Below, piece after piece: positions 2,471-26,622 of a DNA stretch of 33,398 bases. The notes beneath the pieces were generated by a model. The model did not search any database. It saw only the letters and a program-made list of their open reading frames with translations, and was not told where the DNA came from. A program made the translations under genes and the position numbers. This DNA comes from a virus: the UHGV virus genome UHGV-0115916; one strand, written 5' to 3'. How positions within the stretch are numbered: position 1 is the stretch's first letter; each line of letters begins with the position of its first letter.

Positions 2471-3973
<1,503 letters not shown>

Positions 3974-10420: not shown

Positions 10421-12604
10421 TTATGAGTTTCTTCTCTGAGAATCACGTACAGCCTGTACAACACTGTTTTGATATTTCTTTAGATTAGCCTGAAATTGTT
10501 TATCATCGCTCATGCCGTAGTTATACATAGGGGCATTTACGATAATATCGCCACCACCAGTACCGTTACCGTTGCTATCTTGATTATCTAAGAATTGAGT
10601 TAGTTTCTTATTAGCCTCTGGTTGTACTACACGTTCACCCGCTTTAAGTACAAATGACTTATCATTATAGCTTGCAGGAAGGTTATCTACGCCGCCGTGG
10701 AATTGACCGCTATTAGATGCACCTTTTGCTGTACTGATAATACTCATACCCATACCTGCAATCTGTGCATATGCCGCTAGGTTCTGTGGGAAACCTAAAG
10801 ATAGTGCACTTGCTAACGCCTCTTGAATCTTCATAATGGTCATAGAGATGGTAATACCCTTCTGTACTGCATAGAACGCCTGAGCCGCCCCGGATGACTC
10901 ACCAAAAGCCGCCGCCATACCATCACCGATCTGTGTCATTGCAGATTCAGAAGTAGATAGAATATTCATGTACTCTTGATTCTGAATCTGTAGTGCTTTA
11001 GTTGCGTACTGTGCTGTAATTGCCGCCTTACGCTTTTCAAAAGATTCTTTATCCTGAATTAGCAATTCATTCTGTTTTAGAATTGCATCTCTTTCTTCTT
11101 GCATACGTTCCATATCGTAAGAAGTGGTATCAAGTCCTAAAGATTGATCAAGTTGATTTCCTAAGTAATTAGACTGTTGTTTATTTAGATCACCGTTCGC
11201 AAGTAAAGCATTTTGATCTAGTGTCTGTTGGTTAGGGTTACTATAACCAATCATCTGATTGATCATATTAAGTCTACCCGCCGCCCCTGCTGTTAGTTGG
11301 TCGTTTAGTAATTCCTGTAGTTTTACATCAGATAAGCCTAATGTTTTTGCACTCTTCTTAATTACGTTTACGATTTCGTTTTGCTGGCGTTTGAATTCTG
11401 CTAACTGACGTTCATTAGTACCTTCAGTCTGATCTACAAGTACCTTATCTAATGCGGCCTGTGCTGCAATGCGTTGTTGTGCTGCTTTAGCCTGTTCGCT
11501 GGCTGCTGCTTTAGCCGCTGCCGCTGCTGCCTTAGCTGCTTTCTCTGCGGCCTTTTTAGGATCTTCTAATGGTGTCCATGCTGCGTTACCACGTGGGTTA
11601 GTTACTGTGGCTTTACCAGTTGGTAAATTACTATTCAGTACAGGCATGTTATTTTTATTCTTTTCGGCGTTAGCTTGATCAATTAATGCAAGTGCATCAT
11701 CACCTAAGCCAAAACCTAAGCCCATTGATTTTAGAAGTTTACTAAAGCTGGCTGCTCGGTTCATTTGAGTTTCCCAAAATCCCTTTGCTGTATCACCTTC
11801 TTTCATTGCTGCAATGAATTCATTAGTAGCAGATACAATAGGGTTTAATGTTTCAATCAAATATTCCTGGCCTGTATCCAGTAGAGTACGTAGATTATTA
11901 TCGAATTCTTCATAGGCTTTAGCTTGATCTTCACTAACTGCTACAGTTTGTTTTTTAATATTCGCCATTGCTTCAGAGTAACTATTAAATTCACTGAGTA
12001 CTCCAGTTAGACGGGAACCATTACTAGCTACTGCTTCCATTGCATAGGTTATTTCTGCTTGTGTTTTTCCTGCATCTCTCATTTTATAATAGAGATCTAC
12101 CATTGCTTCAATACCGCCATTGGCTTTACCTACATATTTTGTAAAGTCATTAACGTTTAAACCCATCTCTTTTACGACGGTAATAAACTCACCTGTACCC
12201 GCTGCGTACCCCTCACCCATTTTATCGGATGTATCTTGCGAAATATCCGCTAGACCTTCTGCATCTATACCAGTTTGTCTAAATGCCTTTTGTAGTTTCT
12301 GTAGGTCGGTTACTGATATACCAGATCGTGTAGAAAGTTGATTTAATTCACGTACTAACCCGTTAACCTTAAGTACAAGTGCACCTACTGCCGTTCCTGC
12401 ACCTAGTGCTACTGCGGAAATACCACCGATACCCGTTGAAAGTTTCCCGAATACTTGAGAAGTATTAGATGCAAAACCACCTAATGATCCCCCGGCTTTT
12501 TTACCGAATGCATCTACTCTTTGTTCTGCCTGTTGTAGTGCTTTAGATAGTCCTGTACTGTCACCATCTATTTCTACTTTAATTTTTTCGTTCTTCCTTG
12601 CCAT
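10421..12604 (-). CDS. Tail tape measure protein
   Basis: 727 aa, largely helical/Ala-Lys-Gln-rich with AAEKAAKAAAAAAKAAASEQAKAAQQRIAAQAA; immediately downstream of the G/GT chaperone genes; TAATG overlap with the upstream ORF. Confidence 0.8.
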   Translation of the reverse strand: MARKNEKIKVEIDGDSTGLSKALQQAEQRVDAFGKKAGGSLGGFASNTSQVFGKLSTGIGGISAVALGAGTAVGALVLKVNGLVRELNQLSTRSGISVTDLQKLQKAFRQTGIDAEGLADISQDTSDKMGEGYAAGTGEFITVVKEMGLNVNDFTKYVGKANGGIEAMVDLYYKMRDAGKTQAEITYAMEAVASNGSRLTGVLSEFNSYSEAMANIKKQTVAVSEDQAKAYEEFDNNLRTLLDTGQEYLIETLNPIVSATNEFIAAMKEGDTAKGFWETQMNRAASFSKLLKSMGLGFGLGDDALALIDQANAEKNKNNMPVLNSNLPTGKATVTNPRGNAAWTPLEDPKKAAEKAAKAAAAAAKAAASEQAKAAQQRIAAQAALDKVLVDQTEGTNERQLAEFKRQQNEIVNVIKKSAKTLGLSDVKLQELLNDQLTAGAAGRLNMINQMIGYSNPNQQTLDQNALLANGDLNKQQSNYLGNQLDQSLGLDTTSYDMERMQEERDAILKQNELLIQDKESFEKRKAAITAQYATKALQIQNQEYMNILSTSESAMTQIGDGMAAAFGESSGAAQAFYAVQKGITISMTIMKIQEALASALSLGFPQNLAAYAQIAGMGMSIISTAKGASNSGQFHGGVDNLPASYNDKSFVLKAGERVVQPEANKKLTQFLDNQDSNGNGTGGGDIIVNAPMYNYGMSDDKQFQANLKKYQNSVVQAVRDSQRRNS

Positions 12605-12939
12605 TACTTTTTACCCTTTTTAATAGCCATGTTTTTAATCATCTCCCCAATAGAATTAATCTCCTGAGCTTGATTATTAATTTTTTGTTGTTCCCTTTTT
12701 AATCTACGCTCTTTTGTAGTTAGAGAATCATCGAGCATATCCATGAAATCAAAATCACTGTACTTAAGGGTTTTCTTATAATTGGCTGGTAAGTTTGGAT
12801 TGTACATAGCCATTAGATAACAAGTATGAGTATGATAAAGCATATCCATTTTTTCTTGCTTACTACTCATACAAGATTTATAAACTTCTAATGCTTGGAA
12901 TAAATCAGGATCTATATTCTCCATTTCGTCAATACTCAT
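12604..12939 (-). CDS. Tail assembly chaperone T segment (expressed as G-T fusion by -1 frameshift)
   Basis: 111-aa ORF in the -1 frame relative to G; the frame is open by hand translation from the slippery site through this ORF (…KKIIEDHELRTYLDLICTRGMSIDEMEN…). Confidence 0.6.
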   Translation of the reverse strand: MSIDEMENIDPDLFQALEVYKSCMSSKQEKMDMLYHTHTCYLMAMYNPNLPANYKKTLKYSDFDFMDMLDDSLTTKERRLKREQQKINNQAQEINSIGEMIKNMAIKKGKK

Positions 12940-12989
12940 ACCCCTAGTACAGATAAGATCTAGATATGTGCGTAGTTCGTGATCCTCAA

Positions 12990-13289
12990 TTATTTTTTTT
13001 CGATTTCGTCCACTACATCAGATTCTTTATATAGATCCATAATAGCCATATATATTTTTGCTACTACTTCAGAATCGAGTACATTTAGGTTTACACGACC
13101 TTCAATATCTTCAGTACTGAAAATTGGATCACCGATTTCATCACAAGTACATACGGATACGCATTCCATAGGATCGGTTAGTTTAGAAATATCTTTTGCA
13201 CGTGCACGGTGAATATATAGATCAATACCTTCAATACTATAAGTGTGTTTCTTTGGTGCTAGTTTGTTTAATACATCCTGTAGGTTCAT
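12990..13289 (-). CDS. Tail assembly chaperone G
   Basis: 99-aa acidic protein between the major tail protein and tape measure genes; ends in the slippery A-run. Confidence 0.65.
   Translation of the reverse strand: MNLQDVLNKLAPKKHTYSIEGIDLYIHRARAKDISKLTDPMECVSVCTCDEIGDPIFSTEDIEGRVNLNVLDSEVVAKIYMAIMDLYKESDVVDEIEKK
12993..12999 (-). other. Putative -1 programmed ribosomal frameshift slippery heptamer A_AAA_AAA
   Basis: Eight consecutive A on the minus strand (12993-13000) read GAA AAA AAA TAA in the G frame; a -1 slip enters the open T frame. Confidence 0.55.
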
Positions 13290-13300
13290 TATAATTTCCT

Positions 13301-13335
13301 TTTATTATTGTAAAAAAATAGGGCGATAGAAAATA
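13301..13335 (-). terminator. Intrinsic terminator / attenuator after the major tail protein gene
   Basis: 10-bp stem 13310-13319 / 13326-13335 with a 6-nt loop; the one plus-strand mismatch is a G-U pair in the minus-strand RNA; followed on the minus strand by AUUUUUUUA. Confidence 0.55.
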
Positions 13336-13351
13336 CTATCACCCTTATTTA

Positions 13352-13810
13352 TTATTCTTTTGGTAGTAAACCAGATTCGATAGCTGCACCATCAACCGCT
13401 AGATTAAACGATTTGGTAACTACTGCGTCTTTATCACCAGCGATAGTTGTAGAACTAACGAAACATGTATAGACAACATAGCAGCCTGTAGTTTCAGTAG
13501 CGTCTGTGTAGTAACTTAGACGAATCTGACAACGCTTCTGCTCATCTGCTAGTGTTTCTAGCAATTGGTGTGTCTCGTTATCTGGAAGATAGTTAACTTG
13601 TAGTTCAATATCTGGAATTGATTTAGTACCTAATAGTTTACGGTTATAAGCACTATTGAATGTGACTACATCGATTACAACTGATTCAAAACCTGAAGTA
13701 GTGAAAGAGGCAACTTCTGGTACTTCTTTAAAGTCAGTAGCTAGGGTAGTACCCGCACTTGTACCTACTTCAACTTTTAAATTAGCACCTGAAAAGATAT
13801 CCATTGGCAT
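13352..13810 (-). CDS. Major tail (tube) protein
   Basis: 152 aa; directly upstream of G/GT and the tape measure; homologous to the N-terminal domain of the 13877..16903 product. Confidence 0.7.
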   Translation of the reverse strand: MPMDIFSGANLKVEVGTSAGTTLATDFKEVPEVASFTTSGFESVVIDVVTFNSAYNRKLLGTKSIPDIELQVNYLPDNETHQLLETLADEQKRCQIRLSYYTDATETTGCYVVYTCFVSSTTIAGDKDAVVTKSFNLAVDGAAIESGLLPKE

Positions 13811-13876
13811 TTTTATATTTCCTTATATAAGTTTATTTCTAGTAGGGCAAGAATCCTTTCTTACCCTACGTTGTAT

Positions 13877-16800
13877 TTATTTATTCATTAGTTGTTGTAC
13901 TAATGCTTTTAGTTCATCAATTTGTGATTGTTGATAATCATTATCTTTCTTCAATGATTGAACCGATCCCATTAAATCCATAACAATTGGGTTAACATCG
14001 ATAGACGGTCTATCGCGTGTTAGTTGTTCTACTATGTTTCCTTCTTCATCAAGTACTTCATCATAGATTTCTGGATTGTGTTTCACATACTGAGGTGTGT
14101 TTATTTCTGACTCTTCGGCAATAATCCCAAAACGCTGGCGTTTTTGTTCATCATCTTTATAGACAAAATTAACCATTTTTTGAGATAAAATTCTTTCTAA
14201 CGCTTCGTCGGTTTTTGCTTCTACAATATCTTCTTTATAGTCTCTACCGGATGTACCTTGTAAAGCCAATGCACCACCACCTAGCGGTAGTGAGATCCAA
14301 TATTGTGGGCTTCCTGCTGCTGTGTAGGTCTGGAATCCGTAGTTGCCTACAGTTTCTGAAAAACCAGCACGGATACGTACAACACCATTTGATGCAAGAT
14401 TACATGTATAAGAGGCTGAACCGTTGGAACGTAGCATAATTGCATCAGTACCAGCACTTGAACCACCACACGTAACACGGTTGCTAGTTACATCGAATGT
14501 ACCAGCACATGTAGTATTACCTAATGCAGTAATAACACCGCCGAAATTCATGGTATTAGTAGTACGTGAATAGTTGAATAGAGCTACACCACCTGTATTA
14601 TCACGGTTTAAACGGAATGATCCACCATCTGCTACAAATAGATATGTACTATCTGAGGAATCCGATTCTACAAATGATAAACATGGGTTTGTACTGGTAA
14701 TAGTTAATGGGTTTGACGCTGCGTTAGAGAATTTAGCAGTACCATTATTAGTTACGTTGATACCCGGCGTTGTAATTAGACTACTGAAATAAGAGCCACC
14801 ATTACTAAAGGTCATTAAGCCCTGTCCAACGGTTGCGGAACCTTCACCAACATAGATACGTGCATCATAATCGTTTCCAGTACCGCTACTGTGAAAATCA
14901 ATAAATGATCCCGCCTTTGTTGTTGTACTGCCTAATTCAAAACCTACTGTACTTGTATTTAATGTACCAACCTGTAAGCCACCAGTTTTAATAGTTTGTG
15001 ACCCGTTCCATTGGTTACCACCATCTAGCGTTGGGATAGTTACACCCAATTGATCATTCGTTAGGTATTCTTTCCATGCAGTCCACCCCGCCGTACCAGC
15101 TAATACACGTCTCCATTTACGATTACTTGCGTAGGATGTATATTCTTGTACACAAGCCTGTGCGGTTCCTGCACCAGTTGGATATACGTATAAACCGCCA
15201 GCCTCGGCAATTGGGTATTTGTTAGCAGGGGTTGCACTTGCGTTTAGTGTTTGGTAATAGAATCCAGATTGAGCCGCACCCAATGTATCTAGGTTAACAC
15301 TAGCGGCTAGTGCCGTCTGACTACGGTACATTGCCTGTAAATTATTACGGGCTGCATCTACACTATTTGCACCAGTACCGCCCTCTGTAATTGCAAGTTT
15401 ATTCGTTAGTGTTAGTACACCATTGAAATGTAAACTTGCAGCCATAATATTCATTGAACCACTACCAGCCGCCGTAGTAGAACCGCCTGTAGATTGAATA
15501 CGAGAATCATAATCTACGGTACTACCGGAACTGTGAAAATCAATATAAGATGTACTAGCCGCTACTGTAGAGCCAATTTCAATACCGCCACCTGTGGAAG
15601 AATTAGCCGCAAATCTATTTTGATTGCCGTTAAATTGTTGGTTACCAGACCATGTATTTTCTGTACTTAATAGTGGGATTGTTGCACCAGAAGTACCAGT
15701 ATTAATTACTGCTGAAGTACCTAAGCCTAAGTTTGTACGTGCGTTAGCTACGTTAGTTAAATCAGATAGGTTACTTGCCTTAATAAGATACTTACCATCC
15801 ATTGCAGTACTTGTAACGATACCTAAGTTTACTTGTGCCTGTGCAACGGTACTAGCACCTGTGCCACCGTTCGCCACTGGTACGATATCGAAAGTACCCG
15901 CCGCTTTAACGCCTAAGTTTGTACGTGCTTCTGCTGCCGTCTTAGCACCAGTACCGCCATTTGCTACCGTTAGAGCTTGACCTAAAGTTAATGATCCTGC
16001 ACTTGCTACGCCTAAAGTAGAAGTAGTGGTTTTAATACTTTCACCAGTGATTGCACCAGTTGCCTCTACATCTGCACCCGTAATTTTATTTGCAGAAATT
16101 AAGCTATTGACTTTGACATTACCGGAAAATGTTTTATTCCCTGCAATAGTCTGATCACCAGTTAGAGCTACATACTTTGTATCACCTAGATTAGTTGTTA
16201 AAATACGTTGCCATGCGGTAGTCTGGTTTTTTGCATAGATTGCAAGTGAACCTGTTTTAGTCATTGCGATAGAACTAAAAGTAGTACCATCAATTAGACC
16301 TACACCCATCATATCAGCACTGGCTGGATTACCCACTTGTGACGCTGGGATCTTGATAAAGCTGTTACCTAGTGGGCGTTCTGGTTGATACTGTGGTACA
16401 TCACCACCATTACTACCTACACCATAGGAACCTTCTACTAATGCTGCACTTGCTAACGCCGTACCATCACGTGTAATAACGTCTGTAGGTACAAAAGAAT
16501 AGGTTTTCATTACTACGGTATCTTTATCACCAGATACGTTAGCTGATTGGATTTGACCATTAACCATTGAATAATTGATTAAACCATCTTCAATATTGTA
16601 GCGTAGTGTTAATTGAAATTCTTTTTGACTCTCGGTTGCAGCATCTAAGAAAGCATGTGTTTCATCATCTGGAATATAGTTAACAGTAATATCAATATTA
16701 TCTACGTTTTGTTCTGCTGCTAGTTTAGATGAGTACTCACTATCGTATGTTTCAAGTGTTTGTATCTCACTTTCGATTCCAAATGACGGCATCGCTGCCA

Positions 16801-16903
16801 ATTCGTTTATTTCTTCGTTGCCTGCATTATCGGGAATACGGTTAGCAGTATCATTATTATAGAATAACTTAAAGTTATTACCTGTAAAAATATCATTACT
16901 CAT
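13877..16903 (-). CDS. Tail fibre protein with N-terminal tail-tube-like domain and C-terminal intramolecular-chaperone-like domain
   Basis: 1008 aa; N-terminal ~150 aa aligns with the 152-aa major tail protein (DIFTG/DIFSG, VNYIPDDETH/VNYLPDNETH, GDKDTVVMK/GDKDAVVTK); repeated NGGTGA...NLG fibre repeats in the middle; C-terminus (GRDYKEDI ... RFGIIAEE ... IDELKALVQQL) resembles peptidase-S74-type autoprocessing chaperone domains. Confidence 0.7.
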   Translation of the reverse strand: MSNDIFTGNNFKLFYNNDTANRIPDNAGNEEINELAAMPSFGIESEIQTLETYDSEYSSKLAAEQNVDNIDITVNYIPDDETHAFLDAATESQKEFQLTLRYNIEDGLINYSMVNGQIQSANVSGDKDTVVMKTYSFVPTDVITRDGTALASAALVEGSYGVGSNGGDVPQYQPERPLGNSFIKIPASQVGNPASADMMGVGLIDGTTFSSIAMTKTGSLAIYAKNQTTAWQRILTTNLGDTKYVALTGDQTIAGNKTFSGNVKVNSLISANKITGADVEATGAITGESIKTTTSTLGVASAGSLTLGQALTVANGGTGAKTAAEARTNLGVKAAGTFDIVPVANGGTGASTVAQAQVNLGIVTSTAMDGKYLIKASNLSDLTNVANARTNLGLGTSAVINTGTSGATIPLLSTENTWSGNQQFNGNQNRFAANSSTGGGIEIGSTVAASTSYIDFHSSGSTVDYDSRIQSTGGSTTAAGSGSMNIMAASLHFNGVLTLTNKLAITEGGTGANSVDAARNNLQAMYRSQTALAASVNLDTLGAAQSGFYYQTLNASATPANKYPIAEAGGLYVYPTGAGTAQACVQEYTSYASNRKWRRVLAGTAGWTAWKEYLTNDQLGVTIPTLDGGNQWNGSQTIKTGGLQVGTLNTSTVGFELGSTTTKAGSFIDFHSSGTGNDYDARIYVGEGSATVGQGLMTFSNGGSYFSSLITTPGINVTNNGTAKFSNAASNPLTITSTNPCLSFVESDSSDSTYLFVADGGSFRLNRDNTGGVALFNYSRTTNTMNFGGVITALGNTTCAGTFDVTSNRVTCGGSSAGTDAIMLRSNGSASYTCNLASNGVVRIRAGFSETVGNYGFQTYTAAGSPQYWISLPLGGGALALQGTSGRDYKEDIVEAKTDEALERILSQKMVNFVYKDDEQKRQRFGIIAEESEINTPQYVKHNPEIYDEVLDEEGNIVEQLTRDRPSIDVNPIVMDLMGSVQSLKKDNDYQQSQIDELKALVQQLMNK

Positions 16904-17645: not shown

Positions 17646-19496
17646 TTATGCTTGTAGTTTAATTTGTACGAATGCTTCCTCGTGACCGATTGCAGTGTCG
17701 AGATATTGGAAACTACGAATAGCGATAGTTTGAGCCGCACGATAAGTAGTATCGTCAAAATCTAGTTCTTGGCCTTCATTCCAGTTAGCGAAAATTAGCT
17801 CTGAGAAGTCACCGATTAGAATGGTATCTTGTGCAACGAAAGTAGATTCAATTACACGTACTTCATCGTTTAGCCACATGTCATAGCGATGACCTGCTAC
17901 CATTGCTACGGCTGCGGTATTGCTGAGAACTGCGGTTTGACGTAGTTTTGCTAGCATTGCTGGATGCACGATAGCTACACAACGATTAACATCAACGTTT
18001 GCTACACCTAGTGCCTCAATTGCTTTTTGTACGTCTGCTTCGGTTACTGTACCCGCTGCTGCTGTTTCTTGTACTGGTACTGCTAGTGCAATTTTATCAA
18101 ATACTGCTTTTTCTAGACCGTTAGAGCAATGGCGTAGTAGTTCATCAGTTACATAACGTTCAGTTGCTGCATTGCTTAGTAGCATTGCTTTAGTAACTTT
18201 AATACCTGCTGCAAACATAGTAGGCTTTAGAGTGATCTTGTCGAAAGATTCAAAACCATCTACTACGGATTCATCTTCACCGTAGAATTTCGCTACAGGG
18301 TTCATACCTTTAGCACGTGGGATAGAGAAATTACCACGACCTGCTAGGCCACCAAATACAGTAACAGGTAGTTGACCTAGTACAGTACGTGCTAGTAGTT
18401 CACGTAGATAAGAGTCGGCTAGTTGTTCTTTAACTAGACCTGCTGCGGTAACAGTAGAGGTAGTATCTGAAGTAGAACGTACCATTGCATTTAGATCAGC
18501 ACTATAACCACGTGAACCTTTATCAAAAGTTGCTAGTTGGTTATCTTCACCTTTAAGACTACGTAGACCTTCAGCGATTAGAGATTTATTTTCCATTTGT
18601 TTGATATCCTTATCAATTGATTTATCTTTATTTAGTAGTGAGCGTTTAAATTCATCTACGCTTACACCGTTTTTAATTGCTTCTTCGGTACTAATCCCTA
18701 GTACGTTAGAAATAGATTGAAGTTCGCGTACACGCTTATCTTCTACATCTTTATTTAGTTTTTCTTGAATATTGATTTCAGTAGTTGCAATAGAACGTTC
18801 TTCTACTAGTTCCACTTCTTGAAGTGGTTCGGATACTTCTTCTTTTACTTCTTCTTCTTTCACATCTTCAGCGACTACTACAACTTCTTCAGTAACTTCT
18901 AATTCTGGTTGTACTTCTACTTCCTGAATTTCTTCTACGGCTTCTACTTGTGGTAATTCTTGTTTTTGTTCTTCCATGATTGGTTGATCCTCTAAAGTGA
19001 TTTCTTCATTTCTATTTAGTGATCTTCCAATTCCTACTGTATTGTCTGCGGGGGTACTTACTGAACTTAATTCATATGGTTCCCATCGAGTTACATATAA
19101 ATTATCACCTTCAAAGTAATAATCTTTAATGTTGTAACCTACTGATACTTTCGGGCGAATGCCTTCTAAGATCATACCGAAAATAGTTGTAGCACTTCCT
19201 AAAGCACTAAAGCGTACTGTTGCACGACATACTTTATCCATATCTACGCGGGCGTTTTCTACTATTCCAACTTGACGCATTGCATCATGTTCTACTAGAA
19301 CTGGTGCACCATCATTAAGACGGTTTAAATCTACGTTCTCTGGATTGCATAGAAGGATCTCATTAAATAGAGATCCGTTGATTTCGCGAGTTACTGGAAT
19401 TTCTGAGGCAAAAGATAATTCGACGGTACGATCATTTTCATCAATAGCATTACTGATCTGTGTTAGATTGATCGCCCTCTTCTGGTTCAATTCCAT
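17646..19496 (-). CDS. Prohead protease - major capsid protein fusion (HK97 family)
   Basis: 616 aa; N-terminal ~150 aa matches the HK97-type prohead protease pattern (GAPVLVEHD..., KVSVGY, ELSSVSTPADN); acidic Glu/Val-rich linker (aa ~170-230); C-terminal ~300 aa consistent with an HK97-fold capsid protein; 47-nt overlap with the portal ORF makes the start uncertain. Confidence 0.7.
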   Translation of the reverse strand: MELNQKRAINLTQISNAIDENDRTVELSFASEIPVTREINGSLFNEILLCNPENVDLNRLNDGAPVLVEHDAMRQVGIVENARVDMDKVCRATVRFSALGSATTIFGMILEGIRPKVSVGYNIKDYYFEGDNLYVTRWEPYELSSVSTPADNTVGIGRSLNRNEEITLEDQPIMEEQKQELPQVEAVEEIQEVEVQPELEVTEEVVVVAEDVKEEEVKEEVSEPLQEVELVEERSIATTEINIQEKLNKDVEDKRVRELQSISNVLGISTEEAIKNGVSVDEFKRSLLNKDKSIDKDIKQMENKSLIAEGLRSLKGEDNQLATFDKGSRGYSADLNAMVRSTSDTTSTVTAAGLVKEQLADSYLRELLARTVLGQLPVTVFGGLAGRGNFSIPRAKGMNPVAKFYGEDESVVDGFESFDKITLKPTMFAAGIKVTKAMLLSNAATERYVTDELLRHCSNGLEKAVFDKIALAVPVQETAAAGTVTEADVQKAIEALGVANVDVNRCVAIVHPAMLAKLRQTAVLSNTAAVAMVAGHRYDMWLNDEVRVIESTFVAQDTILIGDFSELIFANWNEGQELDFDDTTYRAAQTIAIRSFQYLDTAIGHEEAFVQIKLQA

Positions 19497-20943
19497 TTTC
19501 CATTTTTTCCTTTTGTATTTCTTCCATGACTACCGCCGGGTCATAACCCATTTCACTAATAACCATTGCTTTACTCTTAAGTCCTGAATCAATTGCAAGT
19601 ACCTCAGTTTGAAGGTCTTTATATGGATCAAGTGAGATTTGGCGAGTTGGTACATATTGGGCATGAGTTAGATTATTGAAGTCACTAAAACTTAAATTGC
19701 TTAATGCACTATTATTTATCATTGCTGCTTTCAACCACGTAACATAAAGAGGCTTAAGTACAGAAACGATTAACGCATTAGTACGAGTTTTAAATGTTGA
19801 TTGTTGTAGTTTGTCCGTTAGTTTTGCTGCACTAAATGAAGCATTACTAGTATCAGAGGTTAGGGATTGTTTTGTAATATCAAGCCCCATTGCAATCATC
19901 ATTAATTGGTTATCTACGAATTCACTAATACCATCTGTAGTTTGTGTAGGGTTAACAGTTTTAATATCCTGTCCTGCCTGTAGTTCTACGATAGCTGCCG
20001 GATTTAGATAATCTTGTTCATAGTAAGAAACATCATCACCTTTTAGTAATTCGATTTCATCACTATCTGGATTAGTAATAAATGCCATTGCTGAAGCTGC
20101 TACTTTACGAGAAGTAATAGCCGCAACCATGAATTCTTCTAATTCTTTTAATTTATCAGTACCTGCATGTACATCTGGAATACCGCGTTGCTGTGTTGGG
20201 TAGTCCTGCTGGAATAGGTGTAGAATCTCTTCTGCTGGTACTCGTTCACGTTCACCTAAAAGGTAGTTGTACATGATAGGGTTATAGCGAGTAATCCAAT
20301 ATGCAACCGGGCGATTAGTATCAATATCAAATTCAATACCATTACTGATATAGTTACCTGAAGGTAGAATCTGGTTTTCATATGTACTAATTCGCATTGA
20401 GTCGATGATCTCTACCTGTGGCATACCATCACGCGTTTGGTGAATGCGGATAAAGCAATCTCCATCGATACTACGAGTACGTTCTACAAGGCGTTGGAAT
20501 GTACTGATATCAAGCGTACCGCAACGGGAAAAGGCTTTAGGATCTTCGGCCCATGCATAAAAAGCATCTTCTAACTGTTTATTCACCTGTTGGTTTACTT
20601 TGTCATCCTGTGAACTATGCGAACAAGGGCGAATATATAGACCATCTGCACCAGTAACACCCGCTGAGTTAGTCGCAACGTACTTTTTAACGATACCGTT
20701 TTTAATAGATAGTTCACGGCTTGCCGCTACCATCACTGGTAAAGTACGATTAATAATTGCGTTAATGTTCCCGGCTTGATTTCCTGCGGTGAATCCGAAT
20801 GAAATAACAGGACTACTTGAACCTAGATTTAGGGAAGTCATAGCACGTTTCATTGGGTTGTTTTTCATTAATGCAGTTTTATGTATTTGTACTTTTGGTT
20901 TTTCTGGTTCCTGTACTTTTTTATTTTTATTCCATCCGAACAT
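19450..20943 (-). CDS. Portal protein (lambda gpB-like family)
   Basis: 497 aa between the terminase and capsid genes; acidic C-terminus; size and position typical of portal proteins. Confidence 0.8.
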   Translation of the reverse strand: MFGWNKNKKVQEPEKPKVQIHKTALMKNNPMKRAMTSLNLGSSSPVISFGFTAGNQAGNINAIINRTLPVMVAASRELSIKNGIVKKYVATNSAGVTGADGLYIRPCSHSSQDDKVNQQVNKQLEDAFYAWAEDPKAFSRCGTLDISTFQRLVERTRSIDGDCFIRIHQTRDGMPQVEIIDSMRISTYENQILPSGNYISNGIEFDIDTNRPVAYWITRYNPIMYNYLLGERERVPAEEILHLFQQDYPTQQRGIPDVHAGTDKLKELEEFMVAAITSRKVAASAMAFITNPDSDEIELLKGDDVSYYEQDYLNPAAIVELQAGQDIKTVNPTQTTDGISEFVDNQLMMIAMGLDITKQSLTSDTSNASFSAAKLTDKLQQSTFKTRTNALIVSVLKPLYVTWLKAAMINNSALSNLSFSDFNNLTHAQYVPTRQISLDPYKDLQTEVLAIDSGLKSKAMVISEMGYDPAVVMEEIQKEKMENGIEPEEGDQSNTDQ

Positions 20944-21470
20944 TAACGCCCCCTATGAAATGTTGTAATAGATTTAATAGGGCTACCTGCGTTTAGTCCT
21001 TTCATATCTGAAATTAAATCGTTTGCCCTTTTAACATAGGTAGAACGTAGGCGTAGAAGTACTTCGCTTGATTCATAAGTTAGGGCTTTATTTTGTATTG
21101 ATTGACTTAGTACACCACCACCTTTAATACGGTCTAGTGTAATTTGGTCAATATCTTTTATGATCTGAATTAGATCATTATATTCTGAGGCTTTACTAGT
21201 TGGATCAGTTACTTCAAATTGTTGTACACCGTATGCTTTAGGACTATCAATAATTGCAGTCCAGATACCCACGCCCCACGTATTAGTATCAATATCAGGG
21301 AATGGGTAAACATAGGAAGTTTTAACACCGTTAGGATCTATCAAATCGATATTAGTTCCTTCTGGATAGTTGAAAGTAATTGTTTCACCTTTGATAATAT
21401 CGCCTTTTAAATCAACTTTGCGAACAATTGCCATTTGTTTTATTTCCTTATTTAAAGAATCCTCCACCAC
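20943..21470 (-). CDS. Hypothetical protein in the lambda gpW position (possible head-tail joining protein)
   Basis: 175-aa ORF between the large terminase and portal genes; no motif recognised. Confidence 0.4.
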   Translation of the reverse strand: MVEDSLNKEIKQMAIVRKVDLKGDIIKGETITFNYPEGTNIDLIDPNGVKTSYVYPFPDIDTNTWGVGIWTAIIDSPKAYGVQQFEVTDPTSKASEYNDLIQIIKDIDQITLDRIKGGGVLSQSIQNKALTYESSEVLLRLRSTYVKRANDLISDMKGLNAGSPIKSITTFHRGR

Positions 21471-23376
21471 GTCTAGACGGACGTACTACACGACCTGTTT
21501 TTACTGGTGCTGGTTCTTCTTTATTTACTTCTTTATTTAGTCCTTTCTCTTTTTGTTTGGCGTTGAATTCGCGTAGTTTGCGGAATGGCTGATTACCTAA
21601 TTTAGATAGATACCAGTGGAAACATATTAAAGCGTAGTTAAGACAATCAAGCGTTTCATTCCTTGCTGAACTAATTTTCTTAACCCATACCCACGCCCCA
21701 GCTTTAATAACTCTCTTCTCACTTGATACCTGAATAAAGTAATCATCTGGTACTGAATGGCTGAAGTGTATTTGTACTTCACTACTATTACCACTATCCG
21801 ATACTGCACGGTTTAATAGTTGTCTAATATTACTTTTCCCTAAGTTTACGTTTAGGTTTATTAGACTATGACCACCAGCCGTAGAGCCTTTAAAGAGTGG
21901 GTTAGTATTTGAAGTACCGCCCTTGATTGGTTTAAAGATTGTCGATGCACTACAATAGCGATATACCGTACTGGTTGCGTTACCGTTCGAACTATCTACA
22001 AAACCTGCAAGTACTTTAAGTGGTTTACCGGATACGGTTTTAAAGTTAGTTTGTGAAAATGCTGTTAGCTTATTCCATGCGGGAGCCTCTATTTTAGTAC
22101 AGTCAATGCTATGAATACTGCGATGATCGAGTACATAAAGATTCTTTTCACTTATTCCTAACGTTGTTACTTCAAGGCGGTCTAACTGTTGGTCTACACC
22201 TAGTACGATTCCTTGACAGTCATCCGGCACGGTATCTATATCTATTGAACTATCACGTAGGTTTTCAAGTAATACTAAATCATGATCGGTATTCTCTTTA
22301 TCAATATAAGGAAGTCCTAAGACGTTATTGTAGAATGAGGCTAGATCAAATGTATAATGTGCTTCGGCAAAATCCTGTACTATTGATTTGATCGAGTTAA
22401 TCGGGGAGTATAAACGGCTAATATGATACCCCATGATATCCGTTACTTCTGGTACTGTAGCTATCCATTCACCCTTACGTATCATTCTTACACGTTCGGC
22501 TTCTGTGATTACATTATTACACTTAGGACATTGTAGTTTTGCTGTCTCTGCATCTGGAATGCGACGACGACCACCATCAATAATTTTCCAGTCGAATTTA
22601 ACATTTTCAAATACTAATTCATGTGCATGATCACAATGTGGGCAAGGTACGTAGAACTTCTGTTTATTACTTTGCTCGTACTGCTGAGTGATTAAATCAT
22701 TCTCATCAAGTGGTGTAGAACAAACCATAATAAGAGGGTTGCTAAAAGCCTTTGTACGCTGTTCTGCTAGCTTTAGTGGGTTCCCTTCATCACCATCTGC
22801 ATCTACGTTAGATATTTCGTCAAGAAAGATACGGGGGGCTGTCAAGCCTCGCAAATTCGCACTACTACCCAATGTTAGGAAGTACGTAAAAGTACCGTCT
22901 AAGTTTTGTTGTGTCTTATCATTATTAGTATAGTTTTTATCATTCTTATTACTGACTAGATTTTTAAGTACTGCACATGCTTCGATTACTGATTGCCATT
23001 TACCAGTACGAAACTTACTAGTAGTGCTGGCTGTTGCACCTGCGAAAATTAGATTGCTTGGATCATTTGCGAGGAAGTAGTACATACTATTCTGTAAAAC
23101 TGTTGTTTTGAGAAGTTGTGCACTGCTCATCAAAACTATTTTTCTAATTCTTGGATTAGTAATGTCATTTATGGGCTTGTGCTGAAAGGAAAATAACTTT
23201 ACGCGTTGTCCTTGTAGTTCCCCATCCGGGAATACTAAATTATTCTCTACCCATTCCGCTGGTAGTTGTCGCTTCGGAGGTAGGATCGACTTCGCCGCCC
23301 TCGTTAGTACCTTCATCATCTTCTGGTAGTTGTTCATCCGTGTATGTTCCTTCATATTCATAGCTACCAATTTCAT
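21448..23376 (-). CDS. Terminase large subunit (lambda gpA-like)
   Basis: 642 aa; VPCPHCDHAHELVF ... CPKCNN zinc-ribbon-like segment and DCLNYALICFHWYLSKL parallel lambda gpA (VACPHCGEEQYLKF; EALDCFVYALAAL); true start probably an internal Met (about 23316-23361) because the track ORF overlaps the small subunit gene by 137 nt. Confidence 0.85.
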   Translation of the reverse strand: MKLVAMNMKEHTRMNNYQKMMKVLTRAAKSILPPKRQLPAEWVENNLVFPDGELQGQRVKLFSFQHKPINDITNPRIRKIVLMSSAQLLKTTVLQNSMYYFLANDPSNLIFAGATASTTSKFRTGKWQSVIEACAVLKNLVSNKNDKNYTNNDKTQQNLDGTFTYFLTLGSSANLRGLTAPRIFLDEISNVDADGDEGNPLKLAEQRTKAFSNPLIMVCSTPLDENDLITQQYEQSNKQKFYVPCPHCDHAHELVFENVKFDWKIIDGGRRRIPDAETAKLQCPKCNNVITEAERVRMIRKGEWIATVPEVTDIMGYHISRLYSPINSIKSIVQDFAEAHYTFDLASFYNNVLGLPYIDKENTDHDLVLLENLRDSSIDIDTVPDDCQGIVLGVDQQLDRLEVTTLGISEKNLYVLDHRSIHSIDCTKIEAPAWNKLTAFSQTNFKTVSGKPLKVLAGFVDSSNGNATSTVYRYCSASTIFKPIKGGTSNTNPLFKGSTAGGHSLINLNVNLGKSNIRQLLNRAVSDSGNSSEVQIHFSHSVPDDYFIQVSSEKRVIKAGAWVWVKKISSARNETLDCLNYALICFHWYLSKLGNQPFRKLREFNAKQKEKGLNKEVNKEEPAPVKTGRVVRPSRRGGGFFK

Positions 23377-25896: not shown

Positions 25897-26622
25897 TTAT
25901 TTCCTTAATAACTTTTTTAATTCCTCAACTGTCTTCATTTCTTTTCCAATATGAATCATTGCATGACAGTTTGCACATAAAGGTATAAGATCTTCAATTG
26001 GGTCAATCTTATAGCGTTTACCAATAGTATGTAGTGGCACTATATGATGAACATGAATATAATTTTTTCCGTGACTTCCATACACTTCTTCAAAATTAAA
26101 ACCACAGACACCACAACTCAAACCATGTTTATCGATACATTCTTTTCTAGCCTTTGGATCTCTCTCATAGTACGTAGCAATCCTTTGATGCTTTTCACCT
26201 TCATAGTATTCACTTTCTATTTCAGGTGTGAATGAATAGTAATCTTCATCGGTGGCATACCAATCTCCATCTTTTTTAGTAAGATATTTTCGTACTATTT
26301 TCTTTTCAAAATGTTTAATCCTAGCAGCACCATTTTCAGTTGTTTTCTCATGCCTAGTCTGGCTAAAGGTGAAAAGACTATACCCTTCATGTAAAATTTT
26401 ATCTATGTGTTCGATAGATTGTGTATAACCATTTTTTTTGTGTCCATTTACATTTTCACGCCAACTGCTAGCCAAGATTAAAACTTTCTTACCATCATCT
26501 GATCTAAGATCTTCCCAAGCTCCAAAAATTATTTTTTTGTTGATCTCATCAATAAATGACCAACTCCAGTTATCATTTTTACATGTAGCACCCAAAGAAC
26601 GCATGAACTCTGTTCGGGACAT
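25897..26622 (-). CDS. HNH nuclease (restriction / McrA-like) with N-terminal domain of unknown function
   Basis: 241 aa; C-terminal HNH motif CGVCGFNFEEVYGSHGKNYIHVHHIVPLHTIG ... LIPLCANCHAMIH; AAGGA RBS; N-terminal ~150 aa Trp-rich domain not identified. Confidence 0.75.
   Translation of the reverse strand: MSRTEFMRSLGATCKNDNWSWSFIDEINKKIIFGAWEDLRSDDGKKVLILASSWRENVNGHKKNGYTQSIEHIDKILHEGYSLFTFSQTRHEKTTENGAARIKHFEKKIVRKYLTKKDGDWYATDEDYYSFTPEIESEYYEGEKHQRIATYYERDPKARKECIDKHGLSCGVCGFNFEEVYGSHGKNYIHVHHIVPLHTIGKRYKIDPIEDLIPLCANCHAMIHIGKEMKTVEELKKLLRK

Follow-up and report, generated by a model that had tools for sequence, protein, structure and literature searches.

A candidate G/GT-type tail assembly chaperone pair with a slippery heptamer adjoining the first stop codon in a prophage of Pseudocitrobacter faecalis

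We analyzed two adjoining open reading frames (ORFs), here called G and T, on the minus strand of the virus genome UHGV-0115916, a stretch of 33,398 nt which is referred to as the window in the following. A sequence-only reading had proposed that they form a tail assembly chaperone pair in which a -1 slip on a run of A's at the stop codon of G leads to a fusion product, GT. On the minus strand, the genes follow each other in the order tube (13810..13352), G (13289..12990), T (12993..12604), and tape measure protein (12604..10421), and relatives show the same order. The features at the junction of G and T are as follows.

12990..13289, minus strand: G ORF, the putative zero-frame tail assembly chaperone (phrog_344), with a Shine-Dalgarno (SD) sequence AAGGA 8 nt 5' of its ATG.
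12993..12999, minus strand: A_AAA_AAA, the slippery heptamer in X_XXY_YYZ phase, lying within the A8 run 12993..13000.
12990..12992, minus strand: stop codon UAA of G, adjoining the heptamer (TAA in 20 of the 20 loci compared below).
12940..12993, minus strand: linker, the first 18 codons of the -1 frame (IIEDHELRTYLDLICTRG), an open frame that would be coding only after a frameshift.
12604..12993, minus strand: T segment in the -1 frame, 129 codons plus stop; the 'ATG' at 12939..12937 is read as an internal Met.

G (13289..12990) encodes a protein of 99 amino acids (aa) and 11.2 kDa with the C-terminus ...DEIEKK*, and the minus-strand letters at the junction read ...GAC GAA ATC GAA AAA AAA TAA TTG AGG ATC.... 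The end of the ORF had been given as GAA AAA AAA TAA at 12990-13001, which is correct, and the heptamer indeed lies in phase directly at the stop codon, with A_AAA_AAA at 12999..12993 and TAA at 12992..12990. It had also been described as a homopolymeric heptamer; this holds for the in-phase A_AAA_AAA, but not for the length of the run, which comprises 8 A's (13000..12993) rather than 7, with a G at 13001 before it and TAA (12992..12990) after it. Translated from 12993, the last base before the stop, the -1 frame reads IIEDHELRTYLDLICTRGMSIDEM... and stays open for 129 codons up to a stop at 12606..12604; its first residues are IIEDHELRTYLDLICTRG, followed by MSIDEM.... Thus, the earlier translation by hand, according to which the -1 frame is open across the 50-nt gap (12989..12940) into an ORF of 111 aa, was confirmed over its whole length. 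The -1 frame opens merely 8 codons 5' of the G stop (TGA TGT AGT GGA CGA AAT CGA AAA AAA), and the +1 frame at the end of G extends for 1 codon only. The predicted GT fusion has 228 aa, with a junction that spans IEKKIIEDHELR and would yield the peptide ...IEKK-IIEDHELR; its computed mass of 26.5 kDa replaces the previous estimate of about 24 kDa. At the other end, the stop codon of T overlaps the ATG of the tape measure gene (TAATG).

For the comparison we used 20 distinct loci with a G identity of 29–100%, which were obtained by scans of viral and genome collections and by look-ups of phmmer hits. All 20 carry GAA AAA AA[A/G] TAA in phase at the end of G, a -1 ORF of 127–135 codons, and a +1 frame of at most 24 codons. 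The heptamer is A_AAA_AAA in 15 loci and A_AAA_AAG in five (L013, L017, L020, L022, and L030), the latter carrying AAAAAAAG with a run of 7 A's. Runs of at least 9 A's were found in none of the 20 loci, and the G before the run is invariant, limiting it to 8. Per-base conservation reaches at least 90% over GAAAAAAA(A/G)TAA and is far lower on either side, and the full-length G homologues among 1.84 billion representative proteins all end in EKK. Nine loci have a T as the last base of the codon before GAA, which places a -1-frame TGA right before the A-run, so that a shift would be possible there only on the heptamer. Codon choice is constrained as well: the penultimate Lys codon of G is AAA in 20 of 20 loci compared to 68% elsewhere in G/T, and the second codon of T, which shares the last base of the stop as its first base, is AGA or AGG in all 12 cases in which it encodes Arg, compared to an AGR share of 25% among the Arg codons elsewhere in G/T, though neither of these synonymous-codon counts is phylogenetically independent. 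As judged from the alignment, the stop directly after the heptamer is kept by selection.

It is this comparative evidence that carries most weight for a G/GT frameshift. Based on sequence analysis, G and T are best read as the tail assembly chaperone pair of a siphovirus-type prophage, and we estimate a probability of about 80% that GT is made by -1 recoding at the A8/UAA site, predominantly by the ribosome. The earlier proposal of a lambda-type G/GT frameshift is thus supported by the gene order, a weak chaperone similarity, the heptamer and -1 ORF kept in 20 loci, an unconserved ATG, and a linker that behaves as coding sequence.

The last two points bear on the question of whether T is instead an independent protein of 106 to 111 aa, translated from ATG 12939 or ATG 12924, with the heptamer being incidental in an AT-rich genome. 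Gene callers and RefSeq do give two separate hypothetical proteins in relatives; RefSeq/PGAP annotates G and T of locus L019 (E. coli NZ_CM151386.1, 4001-4683) as two 'hypothetical proteins' without marking a frameshift and starts T at a downstream ATG. Moreover, an SD-like motif, AGGGG, lies close to both ATGs of the window, four other in-phase A_AAA_AAR heptamers occur in the window, and most relatives outside the window's own clade keep a Met 13 codons into the linker. Yet the spacing of AGGGG, with 0-1 nt to ATG 12939 and 14 nt to ATG 12924, is outside the usual SD range and unfavorable in both cases, and the conserved internal Met of the other clades has no recognizable SD sequence when read by eye. 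ATG 12939 itself is replaced by ATT in L009, L010, and L016, which belong to the window's own clade. Within this clade, the 18 linker codons are nearly identical as protein, and their pairwise differences fall into the codon positions 1, 2, and 3 of the -1 frame at 20, 12, and 53, respectively. Over all 20 loci, the linker shows 383 synonymous codon changes in the -1 frame compared to 201 and 128 in the other frames, and the T alignment is conserved from its first residues, and the 12–18 codons 5' of any candidate start are conserved as protein. Together with a heptamer and stop that stay invariant while the flanking bases vary, and with the codon choice described above, this makes a separately initiated T very improbable. 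Independent translation of T from its own ATG had been named beforehand as an outcome that would speak against the frameshift; the sequence opposes it. On the substitution pattern, the 50-nt 'gap' evolves as coding sequence of the -1 frame, and ATG 12939 is not a start.

The same fusion could also arise mainly by transcriptional slippage, in which RNA polymerase adds one A on the A8/T8 run, leading to an mRNA with A9 that holds G and T in one frame; the protein made would not differ from that of a ribosomal slip. An unbroken A8 is present in the window and in 14 other loci, and the heptamer AAAAAAA is under-represented in all frames of enterobacterial genes, which was partly ascribed to slippage (PMC4066793). 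Runs of 'An, n > 7' have been linked to programmed transcriptional realignment (PMC3711429), and it counts against a purely ribosomal event that A8 lies at the lower edge of this range. On the other side, the five relatives with 7 A's keep the same architecture along with an A_AAA_AAG heptamer, no locus reaches the 9 A's from which slippage of bacterial RNA polymerase is efficient (PMC5009743), and the invariant G caps the run at 8. The heptamer phase and the adjoining stop are conserved, neither of which is relevant to a polymerase, and no hairpin of the nascent RNA is predicted upstream (z = -0.42). Because of the A7 relatives, the missing runs of 9 or more, and the conserved phase and stop, the ribosome is favored over the polymerase. 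The sequence-only reading had pointed to transcriptional slippage as a possibility, which is fair for the A8 of the window taken by itself, but what the family keeps is an in-phase ribosomal heptamer and not a run length. We therefore regard slippage of the polymerase as an unlikely main source of GT and as a minor contributor at most. That the split is an artefact, i.e., a homopolymer sequencing error or a frameshift mutation in a single GT gene, has a practically negligible probability. Homopolymer runs are certainly error-prone, and two G homologues, P0006 and P0012, are frame-disrupted elsewhere in G; both have normal N-terminal halves followed by unrelated sequence, probably owing to errors of assembly or to decay of the prophage copies. 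An A8 or A7G followed by TAA was, however, present in all of 20 independent assemblies of isolates and metagenomes, the A7G variant is incompatible with an error in run length, and purifying selection persists on both frames.

For ribosomal -1 recoding, the preferred explanation, the following course can be proposed. Most ribosomes would stop at UAA and release G of 99 aa, and a minority would slip back by 1 nt on A_AAA_AAA, with tRNA-Lys re-pairing from AAA to AAA, and would then read AUA AUU GAG... to produce GT of 228 aa. At the A_AAA_AAG loci, tRNA-Lys would re-pair from AAG to the -1 AAA, and GUA would be decoded next. The slip may take place during a pause at UAA, when the A site awaits a release factor and the single peptidyl-tRNA-Lys in the P site shifts; alternatively, two tRNAs may slip during translocation, leading to the same peptide. 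One-tRNA slippage with a vacant A site requires no downstream structure (PMC6771820). By analogy to lambda, the G part may bind the tape measure protein and the T part may recruit the tube protein, with both being absent from the virion.

With regard to stimulatory elements, an in-phase heptamer and an adjoining UAA are the only recoding signals conserved in the family, which makes a pause at the stop codon the most likely stimulator; UAA is thus probably a pause element that favors the slip. An SD-like stimulator upstream is not conserved, GGA being present in about half of the loci when judged by eye. Downstream folding in the window's clade is unremarkable, with z values from -0.6 to +0.9. 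In L007/L012 (3303-3358) and in L014 and L015 (both 3302-3358) only, a stem of 10 bp that encloses about 36 nt begins 5 nt 3' of the heptamer, with folding z values of -2.15 for L007/L012, -1.27 for L014, and -2.45 for L015. Among L007, L014, and L015, this stem shows one compensatory change from C-G to U-A by two synonymous substitutions, and it is possibly a lineage-specific frameshift stimulator. As a stimulator of the whole family it was rejected, since 44% of its cells were paired over 17 members, which is equal to shuffled sequences. Tentatively, and at clearly less than even odds, the entire signal may consist of the Lys-Lys heptamer and an obligatory UAA without any RNA structure, so that GT would be produced by a -1 slip of one tRNA-Lys in the P site competing with release factors. 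If this is true, termination kinetics would determine the ratio of G to GT and, through it, tail assembly, both of which could change with release-factor activity or growth state, and the site would represent a naturally occurring -1 'shifty stop' within a structural gene of a phage.

Several observations weigh against a frameshifting chaperone pair and have to be set against the comparative evidence. The 83 nt that follow the heptamer in the window have a poorer predicted fold than 200 of 200 shuffles (z = +2.08), and due to the lack of a stimulatory structure the efficiency may be low. A_AAA_AAA is reported to be less prone to slippage in E. coli than A_AAA_AAG (PMC5009743, which also reviews the shiftiness of A_AAA_AAR in this host), and the efficiency expected here is bracketed from literature values alone, e.g., 10% for A_AAA_AAA with 7 A's in E. 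coli reporter cassettes (PMC3711429). At the protein level, G of the window gave only a weak match to the PHROG phrog_344, 'tail assembly chaperone' (E 2.2e-4), and its match to the Pfam family PF16459, Phage_TAC_13 (17.1 bits, E 0.0074), stays under the gathering cut-off of 28.8 bits. The T family resulted in no PHROG or Pfam match, either with the single protein or with 18 members. The G proteins of nine out of ten relatives matched phrog_344, with a best E of 9.9e-9, and nine out of ten also matched Phage_TAC_13 below the threshold (E up to 0.1, best 9.5e-5). Phage_TAC_13 was the only Pfam family matched by most relatives, and no other family was matched consistently. This suggests that G is distantly related to known tail chaperones without being a member of Phage_TAC_13.

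The composition of the window has to be considered as well. It has a G+C content of 36.8% and contains 17 A-runs of at least 7 over both strands as well as 4 in-phase A_AAA_AAG heptamers elsewhere in its ORFs, and because such runs and heptamers recur, the heptamer alone is weak evidence. An in-phase A_AAA_AAA, in turn, occurs at one site only in about 30 kb of ORFs, namely the end of G, and other Lys-Lys pairs after an A are written A_AAG_AAA in 10 of 16 cases. Of the 40 ORFs that reach 90 aa or more, three possess an in-phase X_XXY_YYZ heptamer in the 3' zone where the 0 and -1 frames overlap, and only G leads into a long -1 ORF, with 129 codons compared to 2 and 3. The other in-phase slippery heptamers were also considered as further frameshift sites and discarded, their -1 ORFs all having 15 codons or less. 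One of the ORFs, encoding an HNH endonuclease (phrog_8048, 25897-26622, minus strand), carries an in-phase A_AAA_AAG 12 nt before its stop, from which the -1 frame runs for 6 codons and only 2 codons past the stop, without an alternative product; this shifty sequence is probably incidental.

The genes surrounding G and T, together with a hairpin upstream of G, are listed below.

13352..13810, minus strand: tail tube (major tail) protein, 152 aa (phrog_158, E 5.6e-20; Pfam Phage_tail_3, 27.5 bits with a cut-off of 24.2).
10421..12604, minus strand: tape measure protein, 727 aa (phrog_13674, tail length tape measure protein, E 2e-77).
23376..21448, minus strand: large terminase.
20943..19450, minus strand: portal.
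19496..17646, minus strand: protease/major-head type protein, 616 aa (phrog_617, major head protein, and phrog_4523, major head and protease protein).
Between the head gene and the 1008-aa ORF, minus strand: small head-tail proteins.
16903..13877, minus strand: protein of 1008 aa that starts with a tube domain (phrog_158, E 2.9e-25) and is fibre-like in its C-terminal part.
After the tape measure gene, minus strand: distal tail protein, tail protein, and J-like central fibre.
13320..13345, minus strand: terminator-like hairpin of 10 bp with 5 G-C pairs, then a T7 run to about 13311, between the tube gene and G.

Thus, the window possesses a complete structural module on the minus strand, in which no sheath gene was found, indicating a non-contractile tail. 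The tube gene is the immediate 5' neighbor of G, and the position of G and T matches that of lambda G and T exactly. The hairpin at 13320..13345 is the sole terminator-like site in 12300..14000, and comparable hairpins with T-runs were detected at the equivalent place in L003-L005; judging from its sequence and position, it probably attenuates transcription into G, T, and the tape measure gene, which would leave the tube protein in excess. The tape-measure region of L019 is likewise split in its annotation, into coding sequences of 130 aa and 589 aa. Further upstream, the 616-aa head gene shares 47 nt with the 3' end of the portal gene and appears to be a fused protease-capsid gene. The tube domain of the 1008-aa ORF is paralogous to the 152-aa tube protein and is followed by fibre-like repeats and a C-terminal Peptidase_S74 intramolecular-chaperone domain, so that the protein looks like a tube subunit carrying a side fibre; a large Peptidase_S74 gene also precedes the tube gene in L020, L022, L025, L026, and L029. 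Since the window is 100% identical to the Pseudocitrobacter faecalis DSM 27453 contig NZ_QNRL01000002.1 (L006, 190926-197608), the element that harbors G and T is a siphovirus-type prophage of this species.

The G/T region and a distant G homologue had no match among 50,697 records of cultured phages via blastn and tblastn, which leaves the family without an annotated cultured relative. P0001 was the only protein returned by two word-indexed searches, for which the GT fusion and a profile of 10 sequences served as queries. An exhaustive phmmer search revealed 14 representatives at E <= 1e-3 among the 1.84 billion proteins. Relatives were identified in 2 of 5,426 complete E. coli genomes and furthermore in Pseudocitrobacter, a metagenome-assembled genome of Pseudescherichia, and several metagenomes. 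Their G+C content is 38–41%, and the window with its 36.8% lies inside a chromosome contig of P. faecalis. Altogether, these phages appear to form a rare and uncultured temperate lineage of low GC in Enterobacteriaceae, and the locus is a previously unannotated G/GT pair of a well-known kind with an invariant slip-site-at-stop design. The practical gain lies in annotation, since two orphan genes can be named once G/GT is recognized, and the beginning of the tail-length module becomes apparent. For the mechanism, the gain is modest: the relatives offer a natural series of A_AAA_AAA and A_AAA_AAG, with and without a downstream stem and always with an adjoining UAA, which could be used to gauge stop-driven -1 slippage and to tell slippage of the ribosome from that of the polymerase on short A-runs.

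Among cultured phages related by their tape measure protein, Escherichia phage DCP80 and Serratia phage BUCT805 are without the slip-site design. In annotated chaperone frameshifts of actinophages, the distance from the slip site to the stop averages 26 nt (PMC10885494), compared to 0 in every member here, a mild peculiarity given that slip sites near the stop of G are the rule. The arrangement resembles the 'shifty stop' (Weiss et al. 1987, cited in PMC5009743; prfB), in which a stop codon in the A site beside a slippery P-site codon gives time for re-pairing. The best-known natural examples, prfB and antizyme, are +1 shifts, whereas the shift proposed here is -1 and the role of the stop follows from its conservation alone. 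Slippage on A9/T9 in dnaX of Thermus thermophilus and in insertion sequence (IS) elements (PMC5009743) is similar in that an A-run at the junction of two frames would lead to the same kind of fusion; the A8 of the window, with A7 in five relatives, remains below the at least 9 residues documented there for efficient slippage or transcriptional realignment.

With E. coli dnaX, which encodes tau and gamma (PMC5009743, PMC6771820), the family shares a Lys-Lys heptamer read by the single tRNA-Lys (mnm5s2U34) of enterobacteria, and five relatives have exactly the A_AAA_AAG of dnaX. The one-tRNA 'vacant A site' route described for dnaX also fits a heptamer followed by a stop. In contrast, dnaX relies on an upstream SD-like element and a strong downstream stem-loop, neither of which is conserved here; the junction likewise lacks the conserved stem-loop or pseudoknot 5–9 nt downstream and/or the SD-like sequence about 10 nt upstream that characterize dnaX/IS3-type sites. 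The frameshift in dnaX is highly efficient, at about 50% or more. Its shifted frame ends almost at once, while 129 codons follow here.

A further comparison is the HK97-type prophage tail assembly chaperone cluster assayed in E. coli, with a -1 frameshift of 6–7% (Antonov et al. 2013, PMC3711429). This is also an enterobacterial prophage chaperone pair annotated as two genes, and an efficiency of a similar order of magnitude would be expected here, though the protein family is a different one. The classical system is gpG/gpGT of phage lambda (Levin, Hendrix and Casjens 1993; Xu, Hendrix and Duda 2004, 2013, 2014; reviewed in PMC5009743), where G and GT are made at a ratio of about 30:1 (PMC5009743). 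Differences to lambda concern the heptamer, which is A_AAA_AAA/G instead of G_GGA_AAG, and the protein G itself, which is shorter with 99 aa, with no detectable sequence similarity of the proteins to lambda G or T. In lambda, the slip site is located a few codons upstream of the G stop. Here, by contrast, the heptamer touches the stop in every member. As in lambda, two ORFs on the same strand lie between the major tail and tape-measure genes, the first carries at its 3' end an X_XXY_YYZ heptamer on which a -1 shift would lead into the second, a strong RNA stimulator can be dispensed with, and the short product would be expected in excess over the fusion. On the level of the sequence, all features of lambda G/GT that could be compared, namely gene order, -1 frame, in-phase heptamer, and a T without a conserved start or ribosome binding site, are thus present in this locus.

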